A DNA stretch of 27,589 nt. Source: Candidatus Hadarchaeia archaeon (GTDB lineage Archaea; Hadarchaeota; Hadarchaeia; Hadarchaeales; Hadarchaeaceae). Shown in pieces: positions 900-24,765 of the stretch; positions within the stretch are counted from its first letter, which is position 1, and each line of letters starts with the position of its first letter. Location: NCBI GenBank assembly GCA_041490225.1, contig JBGPSS010000001.1, forward strand, positions 1 through 27,589, written 5' to 3'. A program made the position numbers and the translations under genes. The notes under the pieces were generated by a model. The model was not told the origin of the DNA. It was given only the letters and a program-made list of their open reading frames with translations, and ran no database searches.

Positions 900-1046
900 C
901 TATTTGTACTTCTTGAAGCCCATCTTCGGCGCCATCTCCCTAAAGCACCTTCTACACATGTTCAACCCGTAACACTGATAAACTGGGCCAGACCTGCCGC
1001 ACTTCACGCATTTATGAGCACCCTTACCAAATTTACGCTTCGTCAT
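900..1046 (-). CDS. rps14: 30S ribosomal protein uS14, zinc-finger type, 48 aa
   Basis: Translated by hand (below the ORF-track cutoff): [48 protein letters not shown]. CxxC...CxxC motif, TGATG overlap with the rpl5 stop, expected position between rpl5 and rps8. Confidence 0.96.
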
Positions 1047-1552
1047 CAGACCACCTGTACCCCGAACTTCTGGCTCACGAAGTTTATAGCATCATCTTTA
1101 GTCACGCGGTGAGCCGCCGGGATATCTCGTTGCTTGCATCTTCGGTGCTTGATTCGGTAACCTGGCCTACACAACGTGACACAAACATCCATACCGAAAA
1201 TGCCTGTTTCCGGATCATAATCTACGCCGGCGATATCGATGTGCTCCTTAACTCCAAATGAAAAGTTGCCCTGAGTATCGAAAACTCTGGAGCTCAATTT
1301 TTTCTCAACAGCTTCAAACGTTCTTTTTAGTATCTTCTCAGCTTCTTGGCCCCGAAATGTGGCCTTGCACCCTATCGGGTCCGCGAGCCTTATTTTGAAA
1401 TCTCGAACTGACTTCTTTGCAAATGTCCTGGTTGGTTTTCTCCCCATGATTTTTTCCATGACCTTTTCTGCTTTGACGAGTTTGTCACCGCCCTCACCTA
1501 CGCCTATGTTCAAAGTCACTTTTTCGATTTTGACATCACGCATCGGATTCAT
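1046..1552 (-). CDS. rpl5: 50S ribosomal protein uL5
   Basis: [20 protein letters not shown]...[16 protein letters not shown]...[20 protein letters not shown]. Confidence 0.98.
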
Positions 1553-24230: not shown

Positions 24231-24377
24231 TTTATTGTCCGAATGGCAATTTAGTTTGAGGATATTAAACAATCGCGTTGCACGTTTGATTTTGCACTTT
24301 GCTCTATCAGCGACAACCAACGGTTCTTACCAAATCATAAAAGAGGGTACTGTTAACTTATTTGATCTAACAGAAGG

Positions 24378-24469
24378 CGCCCCGGTCGGGATTTGAACCC
24401 GAGGCGTGGCCTATCTGTGGCCAACACCACGACAGGGCCACATGTTAGACCGGGCTACACCACCGGGGC
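24378..24469 (-). tRNA. tRNA-Asp(GTC) with 17-nt canonical intron
   Basis: GCCCCGG/CCGGGGC acceptor stem, G73, anticodon arm TGGCC-CTGTCG[intron]A-GGCCA, T arm TCGGG-TTCAAAT-CCCGA. Confidence 0.96.
24413..24429 (-). other. tRNA-Asp intron at 37/38, strict bulge-helix-bulge
   Basis: Intron TGGTGTTGGCCACAGAT. Central helix CTGT/ACAG is perfect, bulges are CGT and ATA, and the outer helix is GGT/GCC. Confidence 0.92.
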
Positions 24470-24513
24470 TCCAATAAAAATTATTGCCCTCTACAATTAA
24501 ACGTTACCAAAAG

Positions 24514-24637
24514 TGGTTGGCAGCGTCTTGGGGTTCCCGCCGGCTCTCGCACGGCAGTACAGCCCAAATCGCTGGCGGGCTTGACTTCCGGGATCGGACG
24601 GGACCGGGTATTTCCCCGCCGCTGTGGCCGCCAACCA
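24514..24637 (-). rRNA. rrf: 5S rRNA, unlinked to 16S/23S
   Basis: 124 nt. Helix I TGGTTGGC/GCCAACCA; GGCCACAGCGGCGGGGAAATACCCGG...CCGGAAGTCAAGCCCGCCAGCG; GTAC loop E strand; GAGA tetraloop. Closely resembles Thermococcales-type 5S as recalled. Confidence 0.96.
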
Positions 24638-24656
24638 TATAATTCTTGTTCGCTTG

Positions 24657-24665
24657 TTTTAAAAA
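24657..24665 (-). promoter_or_regulatory. Possible dedicated TATA box for 5S rRNA
   Basis: Minus strand TTTTTAAAA centred about 24 nt upstream of the mature 5S 5' end. Confidence 0.45.
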
Positions 24666-24675
24666 GCTTGTCAAG

Positions 24676-24765
24676 TGGTCCCGCGGGGGAGATTTGAACT
24701 CCCAACATGTCGGTTTCGGCTTGGGTCTACAGCCGACCACTCTAACCAGGTTGAGTTACCGCGGG
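24676..24765 (-). tRNA. tRNA-Tyr(GTA) with 12-nt intron, CCA encoded
   Basis: C1:G72 acceptor stem CCCGCGG/CCGCGGG, A73-CCA, anticodon arm GTCGG-CTGTAG[12 nt]A-CCGAC, T arm GGGAG-TTCAAAT-CTCCC. Confidence 0.95.
24715..24726 (-). other. tRNA-Tyr intron (probably 37/38), relaxed bulge-helix-loop motif
   Basis: Intron ACCCAAGCCGAA. C32 pairs with the antepenultimate intron G, the central helix has one mismatch, and there is no outer helix. The exact register is ambiguous because the flanking A/C bases are redundant. Confidence 0.75.

Follow-up and report, generated by a model that had tools for sequence, protein, structure and literature searches.

The window analysed here is a stretch of 27,589 nt of a Candidatus Hadarchaeia archaeon of the Hadarchaeaceae (contig JBGPSS010000001.1, positions 1 to 27,589). 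It carries a 5S rRNA gene between two tRNA genes of the same strand, as well as the gene of the ribosomal protein expected to bind loop C of the 5S rRNA. The features on which the analysis draws are the following.

24515 to 24635, minus strand: 5S rRNA gene, 121 nt (Rfam RF00001, covarying consensus fold).
24604 to 24607, minus strand: top of helix III, 5′ strand, CCGG (sequence, Rfam, RNAalifold).
24592 to 24603, minus strand: loop C, UCCCGUCCGAUC, 12 nt (sequence, Rfam; free of insertions and deletions in four independent assemblies).
24588 to 24591, minus strand: top of helix III, 3′ strand, CCGG, followed by the conserved AA bulge (sequence, Rfam, RNAalifold).
24657 to 24665, minus strand: TTTTTAAAA, an element resembling a TATA box, located 22-30 nt ahead of the 5′ end of the 5S gene (found by eye).
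24676 to 24765, minus strand: tRNA-Tyr (GTA), 90 nt, upstream neighbour of the 5S gene (ARAGORN, Rfam tRNA match).
24376 to 24469, minus strand: tRNA-Asp (GTC), 94 nt, downstream neighbour of the 5S gene (ARAGORN).
1046 to 1552, minus strand: uL5 gene, the expected loop C binder, intact (Pfam Ribosomal_L5 and L5_C).

We were able to confirm that the locus encodes an archaeal 5S rRNA, as a first reading made from the sequence only had claimed. A cmscan of the window with RF00001 placed the gene at 24635 to 24515 on the minus strand with 95.8 bits, where the gathering score is 38 (E = 6.5e-20), and its backbone is of the Hadarchaeota type. The alignment covers the model from position 1 to position 120, and its one deletion falls inside loop C. 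This is the only copy found with RF00001 in the genome, a 0.99-Mb assembly that is 82% complete. When 18 Hadarchaeota 5S genes were folded together using RNAalifold, 35 pairs were obtained, 18 of them with compensatory changes; the pairs that close helix III (columns 29-32 with 46-49) show compensatory GC, CG, AU and UA combinations. A T-run was seen by eye 3′ of the gene, and the putative TATA element TTTTTAAAA, as judged from its letters, suggests that the 5S gene has a promoter of its own. Both neighbouring tRNA genes exceed the standard tRNA length, which suggests that they contain introns; the tRNA-Asp at 24376-24469 scores below the gathering score of the Rfam tRNA model. The uL5 gene lies within an archaeal ribosomal-protein operon (L14, S4e, uL5, S8 and L6, identified with Pfam).

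On the RNA strand, loop C is closed as CCGG-UCCCGUCCGAUC-CCGG (24588-24607), and both the sequence and the Rfam alignment bear out the exact interval and the CCGG/CCGG helix around a 12-nt loop that had been proposed. The eukaryotic form ascribed to the loop is likewise present: it is 12 nt long, has G at position 5 (the complement of 24599) and U in the next-to-last position 11 (the complement of 24593), and ends in YGAUC. It differs from the 13-nt CGAAC type by one deletion relative to the Rfam consensus and by GAUC in place of GAAC. In the alignment of the 18 Hadarchaeota genes the loop takes up 13 columns, with one gap in the 12-nt sequences. In the Rfam structure line, the first two loop positions are paired with the G-A just before the last two nucleotides, and these last two are bulged; with E. 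coli and T. thermophilus as models, the pairs kept in the 12-nt form would be U1-A10 and C2-G9. The inner loop is 6 nt in the 12-nt form versus 7, with one pyrimidine lost between U6 and G9, and the bulge is UC versus AC in the 13-nt form. Loop C is the binding site of uL5 (PMC1976436, PMC4267664), and PMC1976436 gives C42 and C43 as the nucleotides of E. coli loop C that are held by L5 and cites a structure of a T. thermophilus L5-5S fragment. C7 and C8 of the window's loop (24597 and 24596) are, by analogy, the likely counterparts of these two contacts. Since the inner pairs U1-A10 and C2-G9 and the two unpaired uL5-contacting nucleotides would be preserved, the loop is expected to function like any other loop C. 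In the Hadarchaeota census described below, this exact loop sequence was present in three genomes.

A 601-bp stretch around the 5S gene was found in 20 public runs, none of them RNA, which come from 16 studies and represent sediment, groundwater and peat. Contigs of four runs, from four studies, cover 24510-24640, and all have the loop without insertion or deletion; the sole variant within the loop among the four runs compared is a G>A change at 24601 (loop C3 to U), present in minor contigs of two runs. Because contigs from four independent metagenome studies carry no indel in the loop, it is not an assembly error; the 13-nt CGAAC loop that the sequence-only reading had named as a refutation does not appear in these contigs. 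The chance that the loop is an artefact, through misassembly or through a eukaryotic contaminant 5S binned into an archaeal genome, is in our judgement practically negligible. While contamination of this sort does occur, as MAG records labelled bacterial contain eukaryote-type 5S and one Hadarchaeota MAG contains a bacterial-type 5S, the window's 5S gene is accompanied, on the same 27.6-kb contig, by archaeal tRNAs and a ribosomal-protein operon of archaeal type. Moreover, the molecule outside loop C agrees with the 13-nt-loop 5S genes of Hadarchaeota, the contigs of the four studies agree on the loop, and the same loop type is present in 40 other Hadarchaeota assemblies. The archaeal contig context, the census, the four-study contigs and the Hadarchaeota backbone together rule this explanation out.

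The eukaryote-type 5S sequences in records labelled bacterial (L041/L053 in CAWUFA030000004.1, L085, L062/L092, L106, L109 and others) are in some cases arranged in tandem arrays, one of which has six copies with a 1378-bp period, and they are most likely eukaryotic contamination. We considered and rejected 12-nt loops in bacteria, as the 5S-like matches in bacterial-labelled records have eukaryote-type backbones, and about half of the matches to our loop pattern in such records, among the matches listed, are chance matches. The bacterial-type 5S (L170, G059:C119:401-515) is located on a 1.5-kb contig of a Hadarchaeota MAG in which a normal Hadarchaeota 5S is present as well, and is probably bin contamination.

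In an attempt to place the window's loop within its lineage, we classified the 5S genes of 54 of 66 Hadarchaeota species genomes, one bacterial-type contaminant and one short match below the cut-off being excluded. Loop C was of the 12-nt GAUC type in 36 of the 54, of the 12-nt GACC type in 5 and of the 13-nt CGAAC type in 13. As 41 of the 54 genes have a 12-nt GAUC or GACC loop, such a loop is normal for the lineage, and most of Hadarchaeales have it as their usual form. By family, the 12-nt type was present in 32 of 39 genomes of f1, all six of f2 and all three of f5, and the 13-nt type in f3, f4 and f6 (the sole genome of another order) together with seven genomes of f1. Within f1, 6 of the 11 genomes of genus g8 have the 13-nt loop.

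The premise from which the sequence-only reading had started, that the archaeal loop C is 13 nt long and ends in CGAAC, proved to be wrong, as 12-nt and GAUC forms occur in several phyla. We scanned 185,579 species genomes with a pattern for the 12-nt loop, which gave at least 120 matches and indicates presence, not frequency. Among the matches listed, 5S genes with a 12-nt loop of the G5...GAUC form were found in Hermodarchaeota and Thorarchaeota, Methanomassiliicoccales, Sysuiplasma, Woesearchaeota and Pacearchaeota, and also in an Undinarchaeota MAG, a Nitrososphaerota MAG, Thermofilaceae and Thermoproteales. Genomes labelled Thermofilum and Methanomassiliicoccus, genera with cultured species, carry the 12-nt loop. 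Frequencies were obtained by applying RF00001 to evenly drawn genomes of five further phyla, handled without taxon labels. The resulting counts by loop class, which are given below, are based on the best 30 loci per search and are biased to high Rfam scores, with lower-ranked matches added as an offset, and they leave out Methanobacteriota (Thermococci, Methanococci) and several DPANN phyla.

Asgard (31 standard-order genes): 12-nt GAUC 9, 12-nt GACC 2, 13-nt GAUC 5, 12-nt GAAC 9, 13-nt GAAC 6.
Thermoproteota (67): 12-nt GAUC 3, 12-nt GACC 0, 13-nt GAUC 0, 12-nt GAAC 9, 13-nt GAAC 55.
Nanoarchaeota (50): 12-nt GAUC 0, 12-nt GACC 0, 13-nt GAUC 4, 12-nt GAAC 10, 13-nt GAAC 36.
Thermoplasmatota (68): 12-nt GAUC 0, 12-nt GACC 0, 13-nt GAUC 0, 12-nt GAAC 1, 13-nt GAAC 67.
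Halobacteriota (42): all 13-nt GAAC, the other four classes 0.

Samples were also drawn at the level of the order. Around Thermofilaceae, 16 of 29 genes had a 12-nt GAUC or GACC loop, while 27 of 29 genes around Methanomassiliicoccus had 12-nt loops, of which 5 ended in GAUC. The loop had been implied to be exceptional. It is instead shared by the 41 of 54 Hadarchaeota, by 11 of the 31 standard-order Asgard genes, by the two order-level samples in the proportions just given (16/29 and 5/29) and by some Sysuiplasma, Woesearchaeota and Pacearchaeota. The sequence-only reading had itself named 12-nt GAUC loops common across archaeal 5S rRNAs as a finding that would speak against it, and the RF00001 census found them to be so. 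Three intermediates were seen among archaea, namely G5 together with GAAC, the 13-nt GAUC loop and the 12-nt GAAC loop; as all single-step intermediates are present, either order of events is possible.

Several 5S genes with unusual architectures were detected in these searches. Ten sub-threshold RF00001 matches in Asgard genomes are circularly permuted 5S genes with intact loops, 13-nt GAUC in 3 of the 10 and 13-nt GAAC in 7. In these genes (L509-L518, for example G094:C71:2360-2749 and G096:C1:2590356-2590780) the 3′ half comes first, followed by a tetraloop and the 5′ half; the molecule is broken at the AA bulge in helix III, and its flanking arms are complementary to each other. Three Hadarchaeota 5S genes have an insert in helix III at the AA bulge (L172, G019:C33:7785-7924; L175, G044:C42:9848-9989; L174, G030:C8:10400-10550), of 19, 21 or 29 nt and each consisting of a short hairpin followed by GCGGGAAA. 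The insert site, positions 52-53, is the breakpoint of the permuted Asgard genes; candidate readings of the inserts are an expansion segment or a small intron, and positions 52-53 have been named an unobstructed expansion site of 5S rRNA (PMC7812874). Oversized 5S genes were present in about 11 of 121 sampled Thermoproteota: three of them (L396, L407 and L409, in G285, G373 and G349) carry an extra hairpin of about 17 nt within the 5′ portion of loop C, and about eight more are matches of 137-139 nt. Finally, a contig labelled Undinarchaeota (CAZWFW010000014.1, L147) carries a 5S gene that is near the Hadarchaeota profile (E = 1e-31) and has a 12-nt UCUCGUUCGAUC loop, which could be either a mis-binned contig or a true DPANN case.

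We tabulated loop position 5 against the next-to-last position over 319 loops, and obtained A/A 207 times, U/A 24, G/A 19, G/U 62, G/C 5, A/C 1, U/C 1 and A/U 0, raw counts that are inflated by relatedness. A next-to-last U was always accompanied by G5 in the main sample (62 of 62 cases, spanning both loop lengths and at least five phyla), and the rule extends to the order-level samples, to the permuted genes and to the eukaryote-type sequences. This coupling hints that the two positions are in contact inside the loop, be it directly or indirectly. We take these positions to be A39 and A46 in E. coli and G37 and U43 in yeast. One possible, though on balance doubtful, explanation is that a constrained contact within the loop imposes an ordered path, in which A5 changes to G and only then A to U, with the loss of one pyrimidine occurring before or after. 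Archaea would have walked this path many times, and eukaryotes may have inherited one such archaeal end state. If this were true, the "eukaryotic" loop C would be the end state of a short path.

How the 12-nt loop came to be present in Hadarchaeota was assessed using a tree of uL5. This quick maximum-likelihood tree of 58 Hadarchaeota, which is weak in that it uses a single 168-aa protein and SH-aLRT support only, implies that the loop switched between 12 nt and 13 nt at least 4-6 times, and its well-supported branches alone force about four switches. Within g8 a 12-nt GACC group stands against a 13-nt group, with exceptions nested in each. Some of the apparent switches could be mis-binned 5S contigs or reflect exchange of 5S genes between co-occurring relatives. 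Because the outlying Hadarchaeota families and most other archaea have 13-nt loops, the phylum likely started out from 13 nt, with the 12-nt G/U form being derived.

If, alternatively, the 12-nt G/U loop had been retained from the archaeal ancestor of eukaryotes, the resemblance would be one of homology. There are observations in line with such retention: UCUCGUCAGAUC is frequent in a group of Asgard genomes labelled Hermodarchaeota and Thorarchaeota, three permuted Asgard 5S genes combine a 13-nt GAUC loop with G5, and the eukaryote-type 5S sequences of the pattern scan carry UCUCGUCCGAUC. However, all five loop classes occur in Asgard, and seven of the ten permuted Asgard genes have 13-nt GAAC loops, as do Halobacteriota and nearly all sampled Thermoplasmatota. 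Within Hadarchaeota, the outlying families f3, f4 and f6 are 13-nt GAAC, and on the uL5 tree the loop type changes inside one family and even inside one genus. Hadarchaeota are also, to our knowledge, not regarded as close relatives of eukaryotes, which we counted against retention. We therefore consider it quite unlikely that the loop is a retained ancestral signature.

A patchy pattern could also arise if the helix III/loop C module, or whole 5S genes, recombined between archaeal lineages. A distinct helix III (CGGC/GCCG, then AAGA) recurs in the 13-nt 5S genes of g3, g8 and f3, across genera and families, a similarity that fits either common descent or exchange, and the MAG labelled Undinarchaeota has a Hadarchaeota-like 5S. 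Mis-binning accounts equally well for single odd cases, though, and the loop types sit in 5S backbones typical of each phylum; nor was a mobile element seen flanking the window's 5S gene. Such exchange is in our view an unlikely source of the pattern.

As loop C is the uL5 site, one might expect a 12-nt loop to have evolved together with an altered recognition surface of uL5 (or uL18, whose gene is located outside the window), giving a eukaryote-like 5S RNP. Co-varying residues had been suggested as something to look for, and none were found in the Hadarchaeota uL5 alignment, in which no column separates the 12-nt from the 13-nt types; switches of loop type are therefore not matched by any consistent change in uL5. 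A skew between the loop types is seen in columns 27 (K or N) and 116 (I/L or V), but it follows lineage and not loop type. In both columns G053, which has a 13-nt loop, has the residues of its 12-nt sisters, and G008, which has a 12-nt loop, those of its 13-nt sisters; in addition, G004 and G041 have K27 with a 13-nt loop. Co-adaptation of this kind appears very unlikely.

We favor parallel evolution, in which the 12-nt form would have arisen, and sometimes reverted, repeatedly in archaea by way of intermediates that can still be observed. The repeated gain and loss among archaea suggests that the resemblance to eukaryotes reflects parallel change in a small and labile RNA element. Where the sequence-only reading had left the choice between a convergent and a retained signature, convergence fits better and retention less well, considering the 13-nt loops of the outlying families, the switches, the intermediates and the lack of covariation in uL5. 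Judging from sequence comparison, we think it probable that the window contains a single, functional 5S rRNA gene whose loop is of a lineage-typical and repeatedly evolved form, and whose likeness to eukaryotes is due to parallel evolution.

Taken by itself the window's 5S matters little, as it is a normal gene with the loop that is standard for its lineage, and its loop C gives no grounds for linking Hadarchaeota specially with eukaryotes. These results do correct the shorthand of 13-nt CGAAC loops in prokaryotes and 12-nt GAUC loops in eukaryotes, since archaea hold both forms and all intermediates, and they indicate that a uL5-binding loop can be evolutionarily labile without matched change in uL5. 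We found no description of 12-nt versus 13-nt loop C in archaea in the literature, our coverage of which is incomplete, and the archaeal pattern may be undescribed. The census of archaeal loop C classes and the coupling between G5 and a next-to-last U or C are the results worth keeping.

The window's loop resembles the eukaryotic nuclear loop C (UCYCGUCYGAUC) in its 12 nt, its G5 and its GAUC end. It is the same as the yeast loop C, which we take to read UCCCGUCCGAUC, and is one or two pyrimidine positions away from the eukaryote-type loops UCUCGUCCGAUC and UCUCGUCUGAUC of the pattern scan. Unlike a eukaryotic nuclear 5S gene, the window's gene is a single copy between archaeal tRNAs and outside any tandem array, with a Hadarchaeota-type backbone and a putative TATA element of archaeal type, and the rest of the molecule, its gene context and its genome are archaeal. 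More generally, the 5SRNAdb paper describes archaeal and eukaryotic 5S structures as close, with bacterial ones differing mainly in loop E. With the 13-nt loop common in archaea and bacteria (NCYCAUYCCGAAC in RF00001), the window's loop shares the closing helix, the AA bulge, the first four loop positions and the last one, and presumably, by analogy, the role as uL5 site; it differs by one nucleotide fewer in the 3′ half, by the change of A5 to G and by that of the next-to-last A to U. The same 12-nt G5...GAUC loop (UCUCGUCAGAUC, UCUCGUCCGAUC) is found in the 5S of the Thermofilaceae order, of relatives of Methanomassiliicoccus and of Hermodarchaeota and Thorarchaeota, whereas the backbones of these molecules differ from that of the window and are each typical of their own phylum, and the 12-nt loops of these groups probably had independent origins.
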